Assembly: GCA_964016885.1 (NCBI GenBank)
Contig: OZ024742.1
Span: forward strand, 202,058,001 to 202,122,000
Length of the DNA: 64,000 nucleotides
Direction of reading: 5' to 3'
Source: Eledone cirrhosa
Lineage: Eukaryota
Under the pieces are notes generated by a model, which worked only from the letters and a program-made list of their open reading frames with translations, had not been told where the DNA came from and did not search any database. The position numbers and the translations under genes were made by a program. Position 1 is the stretch's first letter, and every line of letters begins with the position of its first letter. Shown one piece after another: positions 9,101 through 62,194 of this stretch.

Positions 9101-9529
9101 CGAGAATCGGCTGAAAAGTTCATAGTCTCACTGTGAAGGAGTGAGGTTTGAGCTGTGAATTCATGCGTGCATTAATTTTAACTCTTCTTATTATTAACGG
9201 CATTAGGGCGGTGGATTTGCAGTATCGGTAGAGAGTCGGACACCATGCTTTGCAACATAGAGTTACAGCTCTTTACGGTCTGAGTTCAAATCCCGCCATG
9301 GTTAACTTTGCCTTTCATCCTTACGGGGTCTATAAAATAAAGTACCAGTAATGTACTGTAGTCGATTTAATCGACTCCCCCCCCCAAAAAAAAAAAAATT
9401 ACTGGCCTTGTGCCTATATTATTATTAATGGCATTGTTTCTTTCCAGGAACTATGTCGAAAAATAAGCCTCATTTGGCCATTCCATGAAAGTGTCTTATT
9501 CAGCCTATGAACTTTTCAGCCGACCTTCG
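9101..9529. mobile_element. Mariner/Tc1-type MITE interrupted by a SINE
   Basis: TA-flanked ~29-bp TIRs cgagaatcggctgaaaagttcatagtct / agcctatgaacttttcagccgaccttcg. Confidence 0.85.
9205..9419 (+). mobile_element. Full-length tRNA-derived SINE with 16-bp TSD
   Basis: A-box-like TTGCAGTATCGG, B box GTTCAAATCC, core gcctttcatccttacggggtc; TSD tattattaaYggcatt at 9189-9204 and 9420-9435. Confidence 0.9.
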
Positions 9530-11811: not shown

Positions 11812-11966
11812 CAATAATTGTTTCTACTTTTGGCACAAGGCCAGCAAAACCCCAGTGCATTACTGGTACTTTATTTTATCGACCCCGTAAGGATGAAAGG
11901 CAAAGTTAACCTCGGCGGGATTTGAATTCAGAATAGCAAGGGCCGTAACTCTATGCGTCAAAGCAA
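11812..11966 (-). mobile_element. tRNA-SINE, 5'-truncated
   Basis: Reverse complement of the SINE consensus. Confidence 0.9.
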
Positions 11967-18410: not shown

Positions 18411-19159
18411 TATAAGGAATTTATATCTAGTAACATTTATATACATACAGATGCATATCAATGCTAGCAAATATATAGGTTTTGTCTTATTAACAATGTG
18501 GTTCAATGCATGGGGTTGCAGAACAATAATATGAGAGACGTAAAATAAGAAAATTATAAAATTAACTTACTTAGTAAGTTAATTATAAAATTAACTTACT
18601 AAGTAAGTTAATTTTATAATTTTCTTATTTTACGTCTCTCATATTATTGTTCTGCAACCCCATGCATTGAACCACATTGTTAATAAGACAAAACCTATAT
18701 ATTTGCTAGCATTGATATGCATCTGTATGTATATAAATGTTACTAGATATAAATTCCTTATAATTATCTCCAATTCATTTGTCGAGCAATATTTGGCCAT
18801 GACTGCTACTATGGTAGTAAGCTGGCCGCTGTCTTAATAACCACTCGCTTTCCACTGATTGACCTCGATGTCACGTGATTGATTCTTTTTGAATTTGCCA
18901 CAGACGAAGAGGCAGTGATTTTCTCAATGGCTTGGATTCCAGTCCACGCTTCGCTATTTCCATTCCACTGAATTATTTTTCTAATAAGTTTCCAGTGTCC
19001 TCGCTATGCCTGGAGACCTATACGGAAAAAGACTTTCCTGATGACGGAATGATTTTCCATATGATTCTTCGGAAAATATATTTACTCCAATCCAGAAACT
19101 AATTAGTTGGAAGTGATTTTTTAGTAAGTAAGTTAATTTTATAATTTTCTTATTTTACG

Positions 19160-19167: not shown

Positions 19168-19221
<54 letters not shown>

Positions 19222-19227
<6 letters not shown>

Positions 19228-19546
19228 GAAAAAACGGGGAAGTTTCGTTTAGATGTGAAAAATATTTATTGCGTACTGTTACGTACGTTTCGCACAGGAT
19301 TGGCTCAAGGTGACCCATTGGAGTTATGAACCCGACTGCAGTATCGATCTGCTCCTCAGACTGGTGATGCGACAAAAGATATATTTGTCGCATCACCCGT
19401 TTGTGGAGCAGATATGAAAATGGAGTCGGGTCCATGACTCCTATAGGTCACCTTGAGCCAATCCTCTGCGAAACACACGTCACAACTCGATACGCAATAA
19501 ATATTTTTCATATCTAAACGAAACTTCCTCGTTTTTTTCTATTATA
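19222..19546. mobile_element. Diverged fold-back element (family D)
   Basis: ~155-bp imperfect inverted arms centred near 19380; gcGAAAcacacgTC resembles an HHR 3' half; related fragment at 57648-57750. Confidence 0.8.
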
Positions 19547-19640
19547 TACACTCTGTCTGTGCATAGAGTGCTTGATTTGATACCAACACCAGTATTTCAC
19601 TGTACTACCTACACTATATATATATATGTATGTTTGTATG

Positions 19641-26862: not shown

Positions 26863-27375
26863 TAATATTAAATAAATGGAAACTATATTTATAAAACCAT
26901 ATTTATTCTATTATATATATTTCAAGGGTACCAAAACTTTGGTACCCTTTCATCAGATAAAATACGAAGTGTGTTTTATAAATTTTGACATAACCAAGAA
27001 AGATACCTTAACGGTTCAAGTTTTCCTATACATATGCTTGTATTTGAGAGTTTGTATGACGCTGCGTCTTCATATTCATATATTTTGAAGCAAGTAGTGT
27101 TAATTTTCTCGCATAAACCCGACTTGCCATTAGAAAAGATTATTTGGATATTGTCGTTCTGGTTATATTATGTTAAAATGAGGATTCATAAGGTTGTAGT
27201 AGCCTGTTCGGGTGCTGGTTGCTTACATATAGAAGAGAGGGTCAAGTCCGACAATTCTTGCATGGCGCAAAACTATGAATTACACTTAAACTTTAATGCA
27301 TCCAGAATAAAATATCCTAAATGTATTAAAGTTGGTCAATCTTAAAGATAGTCGAACCAAGTACACTATTTTATA
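26863..27375 (-). mobile_element. Family E-related pLTR fragment
   Basis: First ~110 bp match 43205-43320; flanked by TA-rich tracts. Confidence 0.7.
26904..26964 (-). ncRNA. Minimal type I hammerhead ribozyme (intact core)
   Basis: tattttat-CTGATGA-aagggtacc aaagtttt ggtaccctt-GAA-ATATATAT-A-atagaata. Confidence 0.88.
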
Positions 27376-28842: not shown

Positions 28843-29007
28843 ATATTGAGAAACACACAGATACATGCGGACACATACATATACATGAATATATCCACAT
28901 CCATCCTTGAGTTAATGGTGCCTACCTTAACCGATGTTGCTCTATGAATAACTGGGACAAACCAATCCGAATGGATTAGACTGAACCAGTATCAGAGCTA
29001 AAAGTAC

Positions 29008-29157
29008 ATTATGAAGAGAGAAGAAACATTTAGATATAATTAGTAATAAGATGTATCATACCTAAACTGCTTCTAGATTCCTAGTCGAGGAATCTAGAAG
29101 CAGTTTAGGTATGATACATCTTATTACTAATTATATCTAAATGTTACTTCTCTCTTC

Positions 29158-29162
<5 letters not shown>
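29008..29162. repeat. Near-perfect palindrome (75-bp arms, 5-bp spacer) abutting (TA)n
   Basis: 29008-29082 is the reverse complement of 29088-29162, 1 mismatch. Confidence 0.95.
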
Positions 29163-29227
<65 letters not shown>

Positions 29228-29488: not shown

Positions 29489-29674
29489 ATAATTGTTTCT
29501 ACGTTAGGCACAAGGCCAGCAAATACCCAGTGTATTACTGGTACTTTATTTTATCGACCCCGTAAGGATTAAAGGCAAAGTTTACCTTGGCGGGATTTGA
29601 ACTCAGAATAGCAAGGGCCGTAACTCTATACGTCAAACATGGCGTCCGCCCCTCTACCAATACTGCCAATCCAC
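29489..29674 (-). mobile_element. tRNA-SINE
   Basis: Matches consensus. Confidence 0.9.
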
Positions 29675-31264: not shown

Positions 31265-31705
31265 TAGATATACGATATTAATAAATGGAAACAATATTTA
31301 TAAAACCATATTTATTTCATTATACATATTTCAGGGATACCAAATTAAATTATGGTATGCCTTCATCAGACAAAATACAATATATAACAGTTTTACAAAT
31401 TAGCTTTGACGTACCCTATTAAAATGCAACCATTATTTTTGGAAGCCATCCGGATAATGGTTGCATTTTAATAGGGTACGTCAAAGCTTATTTGTAAAAC
31501 TGTTATATATTGTATTTTGTCTGATGAAGGCATACCATAATTTAATTTGGTATCCCTGAAATATGTATAATGAAATAAATATGGTTTTATAAATATTGTT
31601 TCCATTTATTAATATCGTATATCTACTCCAAATACTTGTCGAGTGCTTTATATCAGTTATAAAAATATTTACTTGTTGTATCCCAACAATTTTAAATAGA
31701 ACTTT

Positions 31706-31710
<5 letters not shown>
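31265..31710. mobile_element. Family E fold-back pLTR element (172-bp arms)
   Basis: 31265-31436 is the reverse complement of 31454-31625 (1 mismatch seen); unique tail to 31710; (TA)n on both sides. Confidence 0.9.
31513..31577 (+). ncRNA. Minimal type I hammerhead ribozyme (mirror copy at 31313-31377, minus)
   Basis: tattttgt-CTGATGA-aggcatacca...tggtatccct-GAA-ATATGTAT-A-atgaaata. Confidence 0.85.
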
Positions 31711-32061: not shown

Positions 32062-32479
32062 ATGTAGGAGGTGAGTTTTATTGTAGCACAATAAAGCAAT
32101 GCAAATATCGGATAAGAAGCACTCAACAGTTTATAGGACTGGAGTATAAATAATATAAGATCAAAAGATGGTTAAACGAGTTCCATGTATTTTATTATGC
32201 GCATTTCAAAAACAAATATCATCATGGGATGATATTTGCGTTCTCATCAGATAAAATATGGAGACATGATATGAAGCTTAAAAAACACTTACGAGCAGTG
32301 AAATGTTAAATCTACATATACGTAGATTTAACACTTCATTGCTCGCAAATTTTTTTAAAACTTCATATCATGTCTCCCTATTTTATCTGATGAGAACGCA
32401 AATATCATCCCATGATGATATTTGTTTTTGAAATGCGCATAATACAATACATGGAACTCTTTTAACCATATTTTGATCT

Positions 32480-32489
<10 letters not shown>
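32062..32489. mobile_element. Family F fold-back element with an HHR in both arms
   Basis: Arms ~32148-32315 / 32322-32489; unique tail 32062-32147. Confidence 0.88.
32379..32450 (+). ncRNA. Minimal type I hammerhead ribozyme (mirror copy at ~32197-32258, minus)
   Basis: tattttat-CTGATGA-gaacgcaaatatcatc ccat gatgatatttgttttt-GAA-ATGCGCAT-A-ata. Confidence 0.85.
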
Positions 32490-32544
<55 letters not shown>

Positions 32545-38553: not shown

Positions 38554-41030
38554 TTGTTGTTGTTGTTAGTGTTGATGGTGGTGTCGGCGGTTGTCGTGGT
38601 TGTCGTGGTGATGGTGATGTTGGTGGTGGTAGTGGTGGTGGTGGTGGTGGTGTTGGCGGTTGTCGTGGTTGTCGTGGTGATGGTGATGTTGGTGGTGGTG
38701 GTGGTGGTGGTGGTGGTGGTGTTGGCGGTTGTCGTGGTTGTCGTGGTGATGGTGATGTTGGTGGTGGTGTTGCTGGTGTTCGTGGTTGTCGTGGTGGCGA
38801 TGGTTTTGGCGATGGTATTGGCGGTTGTGGCGGTAGCGATGGTGGTGTTGGTGGTTGTCGTGGTGGCGATGGTGTTGGCGATGGTGTTGGCGGTTGTGGC
38901 GGTAGCGATGGTGGTGTTGGTGGTTGTCGTGGTGGCGATGGTGGCGATGGTGTTGGCGGTTGTGGCGGTAGCGATGGTGGTGTTGGTGGTTGTCGTGGTG
39001 GCGATGGTGGCGATGGTGTTGGCGGTTGTGGCGGTGGCGATGGTGGTGTTGGTGGTTGTCGTGGTGGCGATGGTGGCGATGGTGTTGGCGGTTGTGGCGG
39101 TGGCGATGGTGGTGTTGGTGGTTGTCGTGGTGGCGATGGTGGTGGTGGTGTTGGCGGTTGTCGTGGTGGCGATGGTGGTGTTGGCGGTTGTCGTGGTGGC
39201 GATGGTGGTGTTGGTGGTTGTCGTGGTGGCGATGGTGGTGGTGGTGTTGGCGGTTGTGGCGGTGGCGATGGTGGTGTTGGTGGTTGTCGTGGTGGCGATG
39301 GTGGTGGTGGTGTTGGCGGTTGTGGCGGTGGCGATGGTGGTGTTGGTGGTTGTCGTGGTGGCGATGGTGGTGGTGGTGGTGGCGATGGTGGTGTTGGTGC
39401 TTGTCGTGGTGGCGATGGTGGTGGTGATGGTGTTGGCGGTTGTGGTGGTGGCAATGGTGGTGTTGGCGGTTGTCGTGGTGGCGATGGTGGTGGTGGTGGT
39501 TGTTGTTGTTATTGTTAGTGTTGATGGTGGTGTCGGTGGTTGTGGTGGCGGCGGTGATGGTGGTGGCGATGGTGGTGTTGGCGGTTGTGGTGGTGGCGAT
39601 GGTGGTGGTGGTGTTGGCGGTTGTGGTGGTGGCGATGGTGGTGTTGGTGGTTGTCGTGGTGGCGATGGTGGTGGTGGTGTTGGCGGTTGTGGTGGTGGCG
39701 ATGGTGGTGTTGGTGGTTGTCGTGGTGGCGATGGTGGTGGTGGTGGTTGTTGTTGTTATTGTTAGTGTTGATGGTGGTGTCGGTGGTTGTGGTGGCGGCG
39801 GTGATGGTGGTGGCGATGGTGGTGTTGGCGGTTGTGGTGGTGGCGATGGTGGTGGTGTTGTTGTTGTTGTTGTTAGTGGTGGCGGTGTTGGCGGTTGTGG
39901 TGGTGGTGGTGGTAGTGGTGGTGGTGGTGGTGGTTGTGGTGGTGGTGGTGGCGATGGTGGTGGTGATGATGGACGGTGGTGGTGGTGGTGGTGGTGGTGG
40001 CGATGGTGGTGGTGATGATGGACGGTGGTAGTGATGGTGGTTGTGGCGGTGGTGTTAGTAGTGGTGGTGGTGGTGATGGTGTTGGTGGTGATGATGGTGC
40101 TTGTGGTTGGTGGTGGCATAGGTAGTTGTGGTGGTCGTGGTGGTAGTGGTGGTTGTAGTGATGGTGGTGGTGGCGGTGGTGTTAGTAGTGGTGGTGGTGG
40201 TGATGGTGTTGGTGGTGATGATGGTGCTTGTGGTTGGTGGTGGCATAGGTGGTTGTGGTGGTGGTGGTGGTAGTGGTGGTTGTAGTGATGGTGGTGGTGG
40301 CGGTGGTGTTAGTAGTGGTGGTGGTGGTGATGGTGTTGGTGGTGGTGATGATGGTGCTTGTGGTTGGTGGTGGCATAGGTGGTTGTGGTTGTGGTGATGG
40401 CGGTGATTGGGGTGCTTGTGTTGGTGGTGGTTGTGTTGGTGGTGGTTGTGGTGGTGTTGGTGGTGGTGATGGTGGTGGCGGTGCTGTTGGTGGTGATGGT
40501 GGAGACGGTGATGATGGTTGTGGTGGTGTAGGTGGTTGTGCTGGTGGTGGTGGTTGCGGTGGTGGTGATGGTTTATGGTGATGGTTTATGGTGATGGTCG
40601 AGGTGGTGGTGGTTATGGCGGTGTTGGGTTGGTGGTGGTGATGGTGGTGATGGTGCTGGTGGTGGTGGAGACGGTGGTGATGGTTGTGGTGGTGGTGTAG
40701 GTGGTTGTGCTGGTGGTGGTGGTTGCGGTGGTGGTGATGGTGGTGGTGGTGATGGTGGAGGTGGTGGTGGTGGTTATGGTGGTGTTGGGTTGGTGGTGGT
40801 AATGGTGGTGGTGATGGTGGAGACGGTGGTTATGGTTGTGGTGGTGGTGTAGGTGGTTGTTCTGGTGGTGGTGGTTGCGGTGGTGGTGATGGTGGTGGTG
40901 GTGGTGATGGTGAAGGTGGTGCTGGTGGTGGTGATGGTTGAGATGTAGGTGGTTGCGGTGGTGGTGATGGTGGTGGTGGTGATGGTAGAGATGGTGGTGA
41001 TGCTGGTGGTGGTGGTGGTGGTGGTGGTCT
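38554..41030. repeat. 2.5-kb (GGT)n-derived triplet-periodic satellite with higher-order units
   Basis: Built from GGT/GGC/GAT/GTT/TGT/CGT triplets; recurring 24-57-bp, ~120-bp and ~249-bp units. Confidence 0.95.
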
Positions 41031-42587: not shown

Positions 42588-43983
42588 AGAGACTGTTTAC
42601 ATAATTGCGAACGAATCGAATATTATTATTAATATTCGAAAAACTCAGAATACACACACACACACATATACACATATATTTATACATATACATATATATA
42701 TTTATACATATGTATAAGTTTGATATTGACAGTCACAAAAGTGAGAAGTACTCAATACGTCCTGTTACTTTAGAGTGTTTCCCCATGGTCGACAGAGAGA
42801 TTAAGAGAGCGTTTGTATGTTCACTATATGACTTCTCTGTGGCACATTTAACAATTTTTCATCTGAACTTCAATGTAGCAGAATCGAAAATCCTATAATA
42901 AAGTCTCATAGACACTCAAACAAACATATATTTATATATGTTTGGATGTGTGTATGTGTGTATGTAAGTGTACATGCACTTATATGCATGCACATATATG
43001 CACATATATGCATACATATGTATATATAAGTGTATATATAGATGCATATATAGGTAAGTGTGCATGTGAGTGTGTATGTGAATATGTGTGTGTACATGCA
43101 TGTATATATATATATGAATATTTATGTAAATATGTGTGTGTATTCCGAATGACACGATTCTAGGCTGTAGAAGCCATTTATATATATATATATATATATA
43201 TATACAATATTAAATAAATGGAAACTATATTTATAAAACCATATTTATTTCATTATATATATGTCAGGGATATCATATTAACAATATGCTATGCCTTCCT
43301 CAGACAAAATACAATATAAACAGTTTTATAGATAAATAGATTTGACATACCGTAACAACATCGACTTGTATTTGAAAAGTTGAATTGGCAGTGAAAAGAT
43401 TGTACACAGAGAGAAAGAAAGAGAGAAAAAAAGGAAAGAAAGACAGAAAACGAAGAAAAAGAAGAAAAAAGAAGAAATGCATGGAACAAAATAGAGAGAT
43501 GGAAAGATAGATAAAGAGAAGAACTTCATGTAAAGAAACAGAGAGAGATATATATATATAGAGAGAGAGGAAATAGAGATAGATACATATATATAGAAAA
43601 CCAGGTAGTGGGACGTCCGTTGAGTAAACGTATCAATGATACATTTATTTATTTATTTATTTATTTAGCTCTAGTATTAATGTAAGGGAGATATATGTGG
43701 TTAGGATAGAAACCAGCTGTTATATAGAGAGAAAAATAAAAAATAAAAAATAACCAGACATAGGCGAGGCATAAAAACCCTATGTTTTAATGTAGAGGTA
43801 TTAGTATGTATAAAATAAAAACCAGTCACTACATTGTAAATATCAGTATTCCTGAATGAGACATGTATCCACAATGTGTGAAAAGTAATGATCTTATGTT
43901 TAGTTTTTTTTTTAAATTCATATGTTTATATGATAACTACAAACATCTATGTGAATTTACATGATCAACTCTGCAAACCCTAA

Positions 43984-45358
43984 TTGACCTAACTAGCAAT
44001 GAAATGCATATTATATTATCGGCTAGGAAAACTTTGATAGAATTTAATGACCAACTATGGACCAGAGCAGATAGAGATAGCAATTTTGACATTACTATGG
44101 GATCATCCGACTCAGCTCAGGTAACTGACCTTGTGGGCTTATTTTTAATCAATTCGCTACATAGGAAAATACCTGGTACTACCGGAGGTTTATATAGAGA
44201 TGACATGCTTTTACTTATTGATAATAATAACTCTGAACTAAATAGAAAATGTAAACAAATTACACAATTTTTTAATTACTTTAATCTTAAAATAGAAATT
44301 GAGAACAACCATAGAATAGTCAATTTCCTAGATATAACATTAAATCTCAACACATGTCTTCACTATCCTTTTCACAAGTTGAATGAAAACTTAAACTATG
44401 TCAACTTTAACTCTAACCACCCCAGATCTGTCAAAAACACTATAGTAAACTCTGTTCAAAAACGTATCTCTAGGATCTCGTCGAATAGAAAGATTTTCGA
44501 CGAAAAAGCCCAATACTACAATGAAGCATTAGCTAGAGCAGGATATGCTGATAAGATTATGTACATAGATAATGATAGACAAACTAAACAAAATAACAAC
44601 TATTTTAATTACGGCAACAACCTTAACAACTATAATAGAAAGCATTACAATAATTCCAAAGGCCAAAAAAGAAATAGAACTAGGAACATAATTTGGTTTG
44701 CCCCCCCCCCCCGTTCTCACTAAACATTAAAACCCACATCGCTAAACTATTTTTTAAAGCTCTTGATAATCGCTTCCCTAGAACACATAGGTATCACTCA
44801 ATTTTCAATAGACATACAATAAAATTAACCTACTCATCCACCAAAAATTTAGCACAAAATATTAATAGAATAAATAATAGGAACTTAAAACCTAGTGATA
44901 ATAGCATAAATAATATACAAGTTAACAAATGTAACTGTAGAGATAGATCTAAATGTCCGTTAAATAACAACTGCTTAGTTAAAAATATAGTATACAATTG
45001 TAATGTTAAAACTGACTCTAATTCTTTTAACTACGTCGGTTCCACATCGACGGAATTTAAACTTCGCTATAATAACCACAAGAATTCTTTCACAGATCCA
45101 AGCAAAAAATCTTCAACGGCACTATCAGGCGTACTCTGGCAACTTAAGCTAGATAACGTTAGATATTCGACGGCTTGGAATATAGTCTCAAGAGGGATTC
45201 CTTTTAATTCATCCTCTGAGACATGTGACCTCTGCGCAGAGGAGATATTCTTTATACTAAAATCTAAAAATTCCCTTAATCTACGGACAAATTTATTCAG
45301 TTGCTGCAAACATAGATTAAACTCAACGTTTAAATATAAATTTAAATTTAAAATGTAG
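43984..45358 (+). pseudogene. PLE reverse transcriptase-GIY-YIG endonuclease, 5'-truncated, one frameshift in the C12 run at 44701-44712
   Basis: FDITMGSSD, GLYRDD, NFLDITL, SNHP, WFAPPF, CNCRDRSKCPLNNNC, IVY..YVGST..FKLRYNNH, CDLCAEE, CKH. Confidence 0.95.
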
Positions 45359-46742
45359 TATATTTAGTTTGATTTATAATTATATGGGAAACTAGCCGAT
45401 AAATCTTTGATTTCTTCTTTTTCTTCTTTTTATTTTTATTTTTATTTTTATTTAAACATTCTTCATGAAAAATTAAGCTACCCTAAAAGTTGATGCTCCA
45501 AATATTTCGAATAAACGTTACACTAGATAAACTTCTATATTAAATATAAGAACACATGTAGACCAAATGGGCATCCTAAACTTTTTGAAATGATCTTTGC
45601 TAGATGCGATTTGATAAATAATTTTTGGCTTTATCTGTTTTTCGACTCTGATGCTTATAATGAACTTGGCAATATATTGTCAATTAATTTTGAAGGGTTG
45701 ATCTTTGTGGTTTATTTTTATTATTGTAGTATTTTCTAATATTTTTATTTTTAATATTTTTAATATGTAATATTTTTAATATGTAATATTCTTTCGTAAT
45801 ATTTTTTAGTTTTCTATTTTATTATTACTTATTATTATTATTATTGTTATTTTTTATTTTTTGGTTTTGTTTCTGATATATATTTTTATGTTTTTATTAG
45901 TATATTGAAATCTGCTCTCTATTTCTGCTTGATAGATAATCTTGTAGAGTAAAGACAGGAATAGTAGTAATATTGACTCTATATATATCTGTGTGTATAT
46001 ATATACACATATATGTATACTTAAATTTTTATAGCACAATGAGAATGTTTTCCGTGAACTTAGGGTTTGCAGAGTTGATCATGTAAATTCACATAGATGT
46101 TTGTAGTTATCACATAAACATATGATTTTTTTAAAAAAACTAAACATAAGATCATTACTTTTCACACATTGTGGATACATGTCTCATTCAGGAATACTGA
46201 TATTTACAATGTAGTGACTGGTTTTTATTTTATACATACTAATACCTCTACATTAAAACATAGGGTTTTTATGCCTCGCCTATGTCTGGTTATTTTTTAT
46301 TTTTTATTTTTCTCTCTATATAACAGCTGGTTTCTATCCTAACCACATATATCTCCCTTACATTAATACTAGAGCTAAATAAATAAATAAATAAATAAAT
46401 GTATCATTGATACGTTTACTCAACGGACGTCCCACTACCTGGTTTTCTATATATATGTATCTATCTCTATTTCCTCTCTCTCTATATATATATATCTCTC
46501 TCTGTTTCTTTACATGAAGTTCTTCTCTTTATCTATCTTTCCATCTCTCTATTTTGTTCCATGCATTTCTTCTTTTTTCTTCTTTTTTTTCTTCTTTTTC
46601 TTCGTTTTCTGTCTTTCTTTCCTTTTTTCTCTCTTTCTTTCTCTCTGTGTACAATCTTTTCACTGCCAATTCAACTTTTCAAATACAAGTCGATGTTGTT
46701 ACGGTATGTCAAATCTATTTATCTATAAAACTGTTTATATTG

Positions 46743-46808
46743 TATTTTGTCTGAGGAAGGCATAGCATATTGTTAATATGATATCCCTGAAATATATATA
46801 ATGAAATA
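46743..46808 (+). ncRNA. Minimal type I hammerhead ribozyme in the 3' pLTR
   Basis: tattttgt-CTGAGGA-aggcatagcatatt gtt aatatgatatccct-GAA-ATATATAT-A-atgaaata; the inverted copy near 43246-43311 has GAAA>GACA. Confidence 0.85.
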
Positions 46809-46964
46809 AATATGGTTTTATAAATATAGTTTCCATTTATTTAATATTGTAAATATACTCCAAATACTTGTCGAGTGCTTTTATATCAGTTATAAATATT
46901 TACTAGTTGTAACCCAACAATTTAAATATAACTTTCCATATATATATATATATATATATACATG

Positions 46965-47108
46965 TATAATATAAGATCAAAAGATGGTTAAAAGAGTTAT
47001 AAGCATTTTATTATGCGCATTACAAAATCAAATATCGTCATGGGGTGATATCTGCATTCACATCAGATAAAATAGGGATACATGATATGAAGCTTAAAAA
47101 ACACTTGT
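46965..47108 (-). mobile_element. Family F pLTR fragment (degenerate HHR)
   Basis: Homologous to 32148-32292. Confidence 0.8.
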
Positions 47109-47232: not shown

Positions 47233-47519
47233 GAGAAGAAAGAAGAATACTGCGTGGTTGCACATGGGTTACATATGATATATATATATATATAAACAAT
47301 TAAGTTAAAAATGTACATCTACATATGCATACTGAAATACTAGTATGCATATGAATACACACACGTATACATATGTAGATGTAACAAGTCTTTCACTGGT
47401 TACTTTACTGTGAGTAACCCAGCTATTCTGTATGTAAACACACAGACAAACCGGTTTTTAGAGTCATACTGGTTTTCGAGGAAACACCTTTCCTCTATTC
47501 TCCAGAAAGCCAGACAAGG

Positions 47520-47564
47520 AATATTGAACTAGTTTCGTTGTTGTTACAACTCATCAGCAATATT
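47520..47564 (-). ncRNA. Minimal type I hammerhead ribozyme
   Basis: Reverse complement of 48385-48429. Confidence 0.92.
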
Positions 47565-47986
47565 TACCTATCTACCGGCCTTTCTGGAGAATCGTAAAAG
47601 CACATATCGTTATATGCTTTTTCTATGAAAATTAGTAGTGGGCAGACTAATTTGCATAGAGTGTGAGTACGCACCGGTTCAGCGGAGACGATAAAAACAA
47701 ATAACGAAACGAAATTAAATTTCGTTTCGTTTCTAACTCACTTTTGTATGACTGACGCTTAAACAATTAAGTTAAAAATGTACATCTACATATGCATACT
47801 GAAATACTAGTATGCATATGAATACACACACGTATACATATGTAGATGTAACAAGTCTTTCACTGGTTACTTTACTGTGAGTAACCCAGCTATTCTGTAT
47901 GTAAACACACAGACAAACCGGTTTTTAGAGTCATACTGGTTTTCGAGGAAACACCTTTCCTCTATTCACCAGAAAGCCAGACAAGG

Positions 47987-48031
47987 AATATTGAACTAGT
48001 TTCGTTGTTGTTACAACTCATCAGCAATATT
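47987..48031 (-). ncRNA. Minimal type I hammerhead ribozyme
   Basis: Reverse complement of 48385-48429. Confidence 0.92.
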
Positions 48032-48384
48032 TACCTATCTACCAGCCTTTCTGGAGAATCGTAAAAGCACATATCGTTATATGCTTTTCTATGAAAATTA
48101 GTAGTGGGCAGACTAATTTGCATAGAGTTTGAGTACGCACCGGTTCAGCGGAGACGATAAAAACAAATAACGAAACGAAAATAAAGTTTAAGCGTCAGTC
48201 ATACAAAAGTGAGTTACAAACGAAACGAAATTTAATTTCGTTTCGTTATTTGTTTTTATCGTCTCCGCTGAACCGGTGCGTACTCAAACTCTATGCAAAT
48301 TAGTCTGCCCACTACTAATTTTCATAGAAAAGCATATAACGATATGTGCTTTTACGATTCTCCAGAAAGGCTGGTAGATAGGTA

Positions 48385-48429
48385 AATATTGCTGATGAGT
48401 TGTAACAACAACGAAACTAGTTCAATATT
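48385..48429 (+). ncRNA. Minimal type I hammerhead ribozyme
   Basis: aatattg-CTGATGA-gttgt aaca acaac-GAA-ACTAGT-T-caatatt; stems I and II perfectly paired. Confidence 0.93.
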
Positions 48430-48841
48430 CCTTGTCTGGCTTTCTGGTGAATAGAGGAAAGGTGTTTCCTCGAAAACCAGTATGACTCTAAAAACCGGTT
48501 TGTCTGTGTGTTTACATACAGAATAGCTGGGTTACTCACAGTAAAGTAACCAGTGAAAGACTTGTTACATCTACATATGTATACGTGTGTGTATTCATAT
48601 GCATACTAGTATTTCAGTATGCATATGTAGATGTACATTTTTAACTTAATTGTTTAAGCGTCAGTCATACAAAAGTGAGTTACAAACGAAACGAAATTTA
48701 ATTTCGTTTCGTTATTTGTTTTTATATATATATATATATATATATATACAGAGAGAGAGAGAGAGAGAGAGAGAGTGTGTGTGTGTGTCCGTATACATAT
48801 ACATATCTATCTATCTATCTATATATATATATGTATATATA

Positions 48842-49277
48842 TAACCAAAGATTAATATGGTTCATTGATTACTCAATGAATATAGTTTTACAATAGATTA
48901 AAAGCACTCTACATGAAGTTTTCTGGAGTTATTAATATTATTCAGAATATTAATAAATTAAGACATTCACATAATCAAAATATATGTTTTATTATATATA
49001 TTTTGAAGGTGCTGTGTTGTTTTTTTCAGTACGTCCTCGTCAGATAAAATACATAAATTGGTGTATGACATACCTCAACGGTCTTGATGGTTAAATTCCA
49101 GTATTGACTGCCAATACTGAAATTGAACCATCAAGACCGTTGAGGTATGTCATACATCAATTCATGTATTTTATCTGACGAGGACGAACTGAAAAAAACA
49201 ACACAGCACCTTCGAAATATATATAATAAAACATATATTTTTATTATGTAAATGTCTTCAGTTATTAATATTCTGAA

Positions 49278-49285
<8 letters not shown>
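48842..49285. mobile_element. Fold-back HHR element (174-bp arms)
   Basis: 48933-49106 is an imperfect reverse complement of 49112-49285; unique tail 48842-48932. Confidence 0.88.
49167..49233 (+). ncRNA. Minimal type I hammerhead ribozyme
   Basis: tattttat-CTGACGA-gga..ctg...cag..ttc-GAA-ATATATAT-A-ataaaaca. Confidence 0.78.
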
Positions 49286-49337
<52 letters not shown>

Positions 49338-49919
49338 TATATATATATATATATGAGTGTGTGCGTATATACTAACATCTATGTGTATATACAAATATAA
49401 TTACCACACGACTCACCGTATGTTTACGTCTGACGTCACTAAATATTATCGTCTTTTATTCTCCAGCTATTTTTTTACTAACACTTTATTGATTGTTTTC
49501 TAAGTAAATCTCTAAATCGCACCACTGTATGTCAACATGTCAATCAACTTTGTCTCTTTACATATAGCTGGAGAGATTCACAAGAATTTCGCTGAAACAC
49601 GCGTATCATAAATTAACTGTTTTAAACATTTAGTTGAATTACGAATCATTGGGAATATAGAATTTTGGAAATGTACGTTTCTGTTCATGTTTTTTCCATC
49701 TCCGGGATTATTTACTAGATTTCTTCAAATATCATATAGTGAACGATTTTTACTGTGACTTATTATAGACATTTGTTTTGTGCCGATTATAATTTCTTTC
49801 TTGGACTGATTTCCTGTTTGCATCACTGAGTCCAGATGCATCACTGATTTTTCGTTTTTTTATACTATATATATATATATATATATTCAATCTTATAAAT
49901 CACTGCGTGTATATGTGTA

Positions 49920-50037
49920 TAATTGTTCCTACTTTTGGCACAAGGCCAACAATAACCCAGTACATTACTGGTACTTTATTTTATCGACCCCGTAAGGATG
50001 ACAGGCAAAGTTGACCTCGGCGGGATTTGAACTCAGA
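49920..50037 (-). mobile_element. tRNA-SINE 3' part
   Basis: Matches consensus. Confidence 0.88.
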
Positions 50038-50204
50038 AATGTCTGTTCTGTGGTGTAAACCTGAATGACTATCTTTGTATTACGTGATGTTAGGCAGGTG
50101 TCCGCCATCATAACTTTACATCTGTCGGGTAAAATACTTTCAAATATTGATTATTATTGTAATTATGATTGACAGGAAGATCCCAGAAAGCCTGATTAAA
50201 TGAC

Positions 50205-54975: not shown

Positions 54976-55527
<552 letters not shown>

Positions 55528-61500: not shown

Positions 61501-61902
61501 ATTTTCGTCTTTCTGCTTTGACTTTGTGATAAGTTAGAAAGGATCATTATTAATTTTGTGGATGGGTGGAATCATTAGAGTGTCTCACAAAATCGTTTAA
61601 GGTATTTTGTACGGGTTTTTATGTTCTCGGTTTAGATCCCACTGATGTCAACGTTGCCTTTCACGGTTCAGTGGTGGCAACAGTCAAGTCCTGCTGTAGA
61701 TTTAATCAAGCCTTCCTCCACGCCGAAACGTGTCCTTGAGCCAAAATTAAAATTCGTTGAGCTACACAGAAAGACCAGTCTAGTACACTAGAAAGACCAG
61801 TCCAATACAGAGGTTGATCTAATCCACATTTCCAGTTTCTACATTGCTTGCCTTGTGCTTAAATTAAAAATCAGTATTATTTTGTACTATTCGTTCTCTG
61901 TA

Positions 61903-62118
61903 AAGGCGGTGGATTGGCATTATCGGCAGACCGTCAGACACCATGCTTTGCAGCATAGAGTTATGGCTTTTTACGTTCTGAGTTCAAATCCCGCCGAGGT
62001 TAGCTTTGCCTTTCATCCTTACGTGGTCGATGAAATAAAGCACCAGTAATGCACTTGGGTCGATTTAATGGACTTTCGCCTCCCCAAAAATTGCTGGCAT
62101 TGTACCTATAGTAGAAAT
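61903..62118 (+). mobile_element. tRNA-SINE, full length
   Basis: A and B boxes, core and tail. Confidence 0.92.
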
Positions 62119-62194
62119 CCCTATTAGTTCTCTGTATTTACTCGAATGTATTAATGTATCTTTATATATATATATATACATGTCAAGTTGAATT

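Follow-up and report, generated by a model that had tools for sequence, protein, structure and literature searches.

The metazoan non-LTR retrozymes are an established class, with members in coral, mussel, salamanders and numerous further animals (PMC7229834), so one more such element is not by itself surprising. As portrayed in the accessible parts of two reports (PMC7229834; bioRxiv 10.64898/2026.07.22.740005), these elements are non-coding tandem repeats with a GC content below 50%, carry one type I hammerhead ribozyme per unit, are highly self-paired and co-occur with Penelope-like elements (PLEs). Their mobilization by PLEs has been proposed, and in the text available from these sources the argument has so far been one of co-occurrence and sequence kinship (PMC7229834; PMC7761336; bioRxiv 10.64898/2026.07.22.740005). 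Among PLEs, the Hydra clade inserts in (TA)n (PMC8557442), and a PLE protein studied in vitro nicks and extends both strands with uncleaved RNA, two start sites bounding the tail (PMC11167929).

Here we describe an insertion in the octopod Eledone cirrhosa that lies in a stretch of 64,000 nucleotides, the whole of which was analyzed and is called the window. We consider it likely that this is a real, relatively young retrozyme-type insertion, likely non-autonomous and likely moved by a PLE into a TA microsatellite. A sequence-only reading of the window had already proposed a retrozyme-type element, which the anatomy and the relatives described below support; the PLE-type tail and the TA target had no place in that reading. 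In the open-licence literature we found no description of a cephalopod retrozyme, nor of tails or inversions in retrozymes; supplementary files may list the family.

Anatomy of the insertion

The repeat unit (U) was taken as the 466 nt of the direct full copy, with the ribozyme sense on the plus strand (Table 1). Measured against it, the minus-strand block (47293-48185) amounts to 1.91 units and the plus-strand block (48186-48725) to 1.16 units, in line with the earlier description of a non-coding unit of ~467 bp present ~1.9 times on minus and ~1.15 times on plus; the exact lengths are 466 and 467 nt. As had also been claimed, few differences separate the copies: the outer copy departs from U at five sites, and the inner minus copy is the same as U over U46-U466 save for one base beside the inversion point. 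The two arms make up an inverted repeat of 498 bp at 99%. The label "very young" can be retained in a relative sense only, the copies differing by at most ~1%.

The longest ATG-initiated ORF in a trimer of the unit has 30 aa on the plus strand and 22 aa on the minus strand, and no RT-endonuclease ORF lies between the repeats at the insertion. The unit has 35% GC and neither a Pol III box A nor a box B. We saw no LTR-type layout at the insertion and no tRNA gene within the 64-kb window, and a target-site duplication is not discernible, with (TA)n on both flanks. A 13-bp A/C-rich hairpin, which we regard as a candidate priming or protein-binding site, had been ascribed to each copy; it is complete in three places (Table 1) but breaks off at its apex in the inner minus copy.

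Table 1. Features of the insertion and of the neighboring coding PLE, in window coordinates.
Feature	Position	Strand	Details
5'-truncated Hydra-clade-like PLE	43205..46937	+	RT 43965-44723; linker and endonuclease 44684-45358; frameshifted
Two-armed insertion, whole	47293..48725	.	between (TA)n runs 47279-47292 and 48723-48748
Outer copy, type B	47293..47764	-	467-nt unit 47298-47764 plus U1-U5; outer end is the "short" end
Inner inverted copy, type A	47765..48185	-	U46-U466; 5' truncation at apex of 13-bp hairpin
Direct full unit, type A	48186..48651	+	U1-U466; 5' end within ~5 nt of the inverted arm's short end
Start of next unit, U1-U74	48652..48725	+	one-sided tail ~48656-48725, 67-70 nt
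13-bp A/C-rich hairpin	48219..48247	+	inside tail region; complete also at 47703-47731 and 48685-48713
Type I hammerhead	48385..48429	+	predicted cut after 48422 (GUU); core 48392-48398
Same hammerhead	47987..48031	-	predicted cut after 47994
Same hammerhead	47520..47564	-	predicted cut after 47527
Predicted monomer between minus-strand cut sites	47527..47993	-	467 nt

At the level of its letters, the locus appears to have the features of metazoan non-LTR retrozymes: a tandem unit, hammerheads, no coding capacity, a fitting GC content and predicted self-pairing. Its 466 nt exceed the 170-400 nt of the tested retrozymes and lie just above a range of 150-450 bp, but inside the 51-972 bp of predicted families, as sizes are given in the accessible text (PMC7229834; bioRxiv 10.64898/2026.07.22.740005). 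It differs from the elements described there in its GUU cut site, inverted arm, fixed tail and TA target. The non-autonomous Chlamys PLEs such as MRC1 are likewise non-coding and form head-to-tail multicopy insertions; however, in the consulted part of PMC8557442 their 3' end resembles that of an autonomous partner and they are mostly without hammerheads.

The hammerhead ribozyme

The 45-nt hammerhead is letter-identical at all three places, of which two follow one another on the minus strand with a spacing of 467 nt and the third lies on the plus strand. It comprises a stem I of 7 bp, a stem II of 5 bp (or 4 bp with a 6-nt loop), the GAA and a helix III built from a 6-nt palindrome, that is, 1-2 bp with a palindromic loop. 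Stem I of the plus-strand motif extends over ~48357-48452. The Rfam model Hammerhead_HH9 matched each hammerhead with 38.6 bits (E 1.1e-7), short of its gathering score of 52, and a scan of the window at gathering level returned no Rfam match. Our structural scan for type I hammerheads gave nine matches in the real window, whereas 60 shuffled windows and 5000 shuffled units yielded no match at all. The exact ribozyme pattern had no match in the metagenome and viral contigs searched. Rfam microRNA matches were under cut-off and were dismissed as artefacts of long hairpins.

The predicted minus-strand cut sites, 47994 and 47527, are spaced 467 nt apart, as the sequence-only reading had stated. 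That reading spoke of three perfect hammerheads; three identical motifs are indeed present, but "perfect" overlooks the GUU triplet. Hammerheads cut GUU more slowly than GUC or GUA. The triplet is nonetheless a cleavable one (PMC3138052). The reading had also called the ribozyme minimal, which does not stand under the definitions of canonical and minimal metazoan forms in PMC4209133: because there is no extra base after A9, the motif is, by its sequence, of the canonical metazoan type I form, and it is predicted to need a second copy to cut well. As far as the available part of that paper describes them, minimal PLE hammerheads share with the unit the type I arrangement, the palindromic 15.2-16.2 positions, a predicted dimer dependence and the G10.1-C11.1 pair. 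The unit differs from them in having no unpaired base between 9 and 10.1, in a helix II of 4-5 bp compared with 7-8 and in a helix I of 7 bp plus a long extension compared with 4-5 bp (PMC4209133). The short palindromic helix III is shared with axolotl HHR_Amex1 (PMC7229834).

A PLE-type integration footprint

The insertion follows the PLE-type plan, with an inverted 5'-truncated copy beside a partial tandem, a tail at one end and a (TA)n target. The same combination of partial tandem and inverted 5'-truncated copy, one-end tail, (TA)n target and a stem-loop between the two end points is found in the portions of PMC8557442 and PMC11167929 that treat endonuclease-bearing Hydra-clade PLEs. Unlike those PLEs, the unit is without RT and endonuclease, and its tail is ~70 nt long compared with their 30-40 bp.

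A coding PLE 4 kb upstream, separate from the insertion, served as an in-window control. It has an inverted arm (43205-43983, 97.5% alike), an 88-nt one-sided tail and TA flanks, and its frameshift lies in a C run near 44700. Its protein shows a C-terminal endonuclease, a CxCX5C linker and the CxxC and CxH motifs of the Hydra clade; from these motifs and the (TA)n target we assigned it as Hydra-clade-like. N-terminal DKT and RW(K/R) motifs are found in its homologues P0002-P0004, the window copy being 5'-truncated. The best named homologue, at 41%, is from Argonauta hians, and a TA-targeting Hydra family is catalogued for Octopus bimaculoides (PMC8557442). Pfam scans of this PLE gave no match, nor did any of 13 further queries (11 other window ORFs, one more and P0001), and a PDB sequence search was uninformative. 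Hammerhead-like motifs occur in this PLE at 46751 (+) and 43303 (-).

We examined eight other two-armed insertions of the window, the coding PLE included; in five of them a tail could be measured, 72-91 nt long and followed by (TA)n at its end, and the remaining three showed no TA run within range. The ends of the window PLEs bear no sequence similarity to the unit. Nor is the tail of the unit similar to six others (summed p 0.56); one pair was similar when taken alone (p 0.026), and homology to PLE tails was rejected on the six-tail sum. Since the tail is unrelated to the others, the link to PLEs rests on plan and not on homology. Because the layout matches that of the neighboring Hydra-clade-like PLE and of the other window insertions, a PLE probably mobilized the unit.

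The window is rich in repeats of related appearance. Seven near-equal-armed palindromes stand beside (TA)n (31265-31708, 32145-32492, 48933-49285, 19219-19548, 18411-18762, 29005-29165 and 1705-2241), several of them with hammerhead-like motifs that have a long stem II and a palindromic helix III, and a start motif is common to the tail of the coding PLE and several palindrome tails. The arms are 83-96% alike in four of the other palindromes and 99% alike in two. Further isolated fragments of PLE ends, or motifs like the hammerhead core, belong to at least two families and were seen at 26956 (-), 46974-47106, 55124-55239, 55446 (-), 17977 (-) and 57290 (-). A SINE-like family, which we take to resemble an octopus repeat, is abundant (49918-50038 and ~15 other places, for example 9203-9421, 11814-11965, 29489-29674 and 61902-62125). 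A (TGG)n-like array of ~2.45 kb spans 38576-41028 (812 copies, 69% match).

Relatives in public sequencing runs

Relatives 95-97% identical to the unit were found in contigs, of unrecorded library kind, from four of 24 listed runs belonging to three studies; the listing named no RNA run, and we gave this no weight. Sixteen of 20 rows were left out, namely 14 with further organism labels at shares of 0.14-0.32 and two more runs of sample S1. The best run, X1, contains 0.63 of the sequence words and is without two of the window's letters, so that it did not give rise to the window. From X1, 1107 contigs cover all 30 bins, and the share running on into unlike sequence is 0; in runs X4 and X6, a small number of ends trail off into unlike sequence. 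Five X1 contigs stop at U74 and continue as (TA)n, which is the same long end as in the window copy. In run X5, one 496-nt contig turns back on itself after 466 nt, a closure that would fit a tandem array or a circle alike. None of the listed pieces spans the stretch so as to confirm the inversion junction and the flanks of this locus.

At four of its five differences, the outer copy (type B) has the letter that is common in the relatives. None of 34 listed variant sites falls inside the 45-nt ribozyme (P ~0.016), and predicted pairs are broken by 8 listed variants compared with 13 expected (P 0.023); both are weak tests, pooled over related runs with U1-U74 excluded. Among relatives, three predicted pairs of one hairpin (48531-48550) show changes in both partners that would be compatible with compensation.

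Several further observations concern single runs. One X1 contig has a 2-base insertion at the inversion point that can be read as spill-over of the tandem junction; we did not count it. A depth-9 record in X1, joining 48177 to 48639, gives no more than a hint of a second inversion junction, whose break points would lie within ~13 nt of those in the window. The unit occurs at a depth of ~4-15 in X5 and X6, runs labeled as two other organisms, and its words are nearly absent from four further runs that share their samples or studies; for X5 and X6 we regard trace DNA of a high-copy host as more probable than true residence. Summed contig depth does not equal copy number.

Predicted folding and release of the monomer

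The circular unit is predicted to fold with -148.1 kcal/mol (z -8.7 compared with 60 shuffles), and a 467-nt stretch one base off the monomer register with -158.1 kcal/mol (z -10.9). Forcing the active ribozyme fold in the circular unit costs 1.5 kcal/mol above the minimum; ribozyme-compatible stable folding is similarly reported, in the accessible text, for metazoan retrozyme circles (PMC7229834). The four type-A letters together cost 10 kcal/mol, compared with 5.0 +/- 4.6 for four random changes (n 60). This cost is not clearly greater than that of the random changes, and we therefore claim no decay.

Release of the monomer from read-through RNA of this locus is doubtful because the 498-bp inverted repeat would pair the inner ribozymes. 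With two ribozymes buried in the hairpin of a read-through transcript, only RNA begun within the inner copy would be able to free the monomer here. For comparison, eight of nine predicted dimer retrozymes of Xenopus showed no cleavage and one was cleaved, according to the portion of the preprint available (bioRxiv 10.64898/2026.07.22.740005).

Allele order and end points as a possible record of the template

With identical inner arms and an outer copy that differs at five sites, the allele order along the template is A-B-A. The direct arm starts at U1, which lies within ~5 nt of where the inverted arm has its outer end, a coincidence with a post hoc chance of ~2%; the other limit of the inverted arm is U46, at the apex of the hairpin. 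A template of two units, perhaps a circular one, may have left these end points and this allele order as its footprint. The earlier proposal of a multimeric or circular template had relied on the tandem junction repeated in both orientations; such a junction is expected of any tandem, and the support for the proposal comes instead from the arm end points and the allele order.

A monomer circle alone cannot give A-B-A without later arm-to-arm conversion, and gene conversion as the source of the identical inner arms is disfavored by the four palindromes whose arms have remained less alike. The order can come from a period-two linear array, from two RNAs of one A-B source or from a circular A+B dimer. 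One version, in which the insertion is a fossil of rolling-circle retrotransposition, with one circular A+B RNA of 933 nt primed twice by a PLE enzyme, is possible but on balance doubtful. It would let one molecule account for the A-B-A order, for the stop of the direct arm at the priming point of the inverted arm and for the ~40 nt by which the inverted arm falls short of a full turn, and it needs strand displacement.

Alternative explanations

It is unlikely that the unit belongs to a coding PLE residing elsewhere, as its pLTR or 3' end, and that the insertion is a short, 5'-truncated, two-armed copy of that PLE. Such an origin is suggested by the layout, which is that of PLE insertions, by the short palindromic PLE stubs common in the window and by the few loose ends in X4 and X6; moreover, resemblance to the ends of PLEs or of related repeats is recorded for 24 of 57 retrozyme families of Xenopus in the accessible part of bioRxiv 10.64898/2026.07.22.740005. 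However, the unit-to-unit junction occurs twice without an ORF between, the X5 contig closes as a 466-nt loop, none of the 1107 X1 contigs runs on, and the unit combines a canonical, not minimal, ribozyme with no match to the window PLEs. We rate it quite unlikely that the unit is instead a satellite-like descendant of a PLE end, moved by a PLE or spread by unequal crossing-over, with an inactive or irrelevant ribozyme and no circular RNA. The uncleaved Xenopus dimers, the GUU triplet and the three uncut ribozyme sites spanned by the arms speak for such a descendant, as does the finding that PLE insertion in vitro was unaffected by ribozyme mutants and left no RNA ends at the cut site in the assays as accessible (PMC11167929). 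Set against this are the variant-free ribozyme and the deficit of pair-breaking variants (both weak), the very stable predicted fold, and the coral, mussel and axolotl elements, which make circles when tested, as reported in the part of PMC7229834 consulted.

It is very unlikely that the tandem repeat alone is real and that misassembly or chimeric reads produced its inverted part. The inner arms are identical over ~420 nt and no listed piece confirms the junction, as an artefact would have it, but the inverted repeat ends at the element ends without duplicating the flanks, the right end is the same as in independent copies, and the layout recurs within the window with arms 83-99% alike.

Proposed mechanism and meaning

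For a retrozyme insertion moved by a PLE, we propose that tandem copies would be transcribed into multimers, that the hammerheads would cut after GUU mainly as dimers, and that circles would be formed from monomers, and from some dimers, by a ligase of the host. The RT-endonuclease of a PLE, with the TA-targeting Hydra clade as its most plausible source, would then nick both (TA)n strands and prime reverse transcription on each of them, the two priming sites being fixed and lying ~70 nt from each other. The template, whether a linear multimer or a circle of two units, would have contained at least the two different units A and B and would have been uncut at the three ribozyme sites crossed. 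Joining of the two cDNAs tail to tail via 2-3 nt of microhomology would give the inverted and direct arms.

A retrozyme with a PLE tail, an inverted arm and a TA target would be an integration scar that bears directly on the mobilization of retrozymes by PLEs. The family is young and apparently abundant, and in it circular and linear templates could be distinguished by counting. If the circular-dimer account were true, the insertion would provide evidence, from a genome, for the reverse transcription of circular ribozyme RNAs by PLEs, and the arm lengths and allele periods across the many copies of the family would make the model countable.
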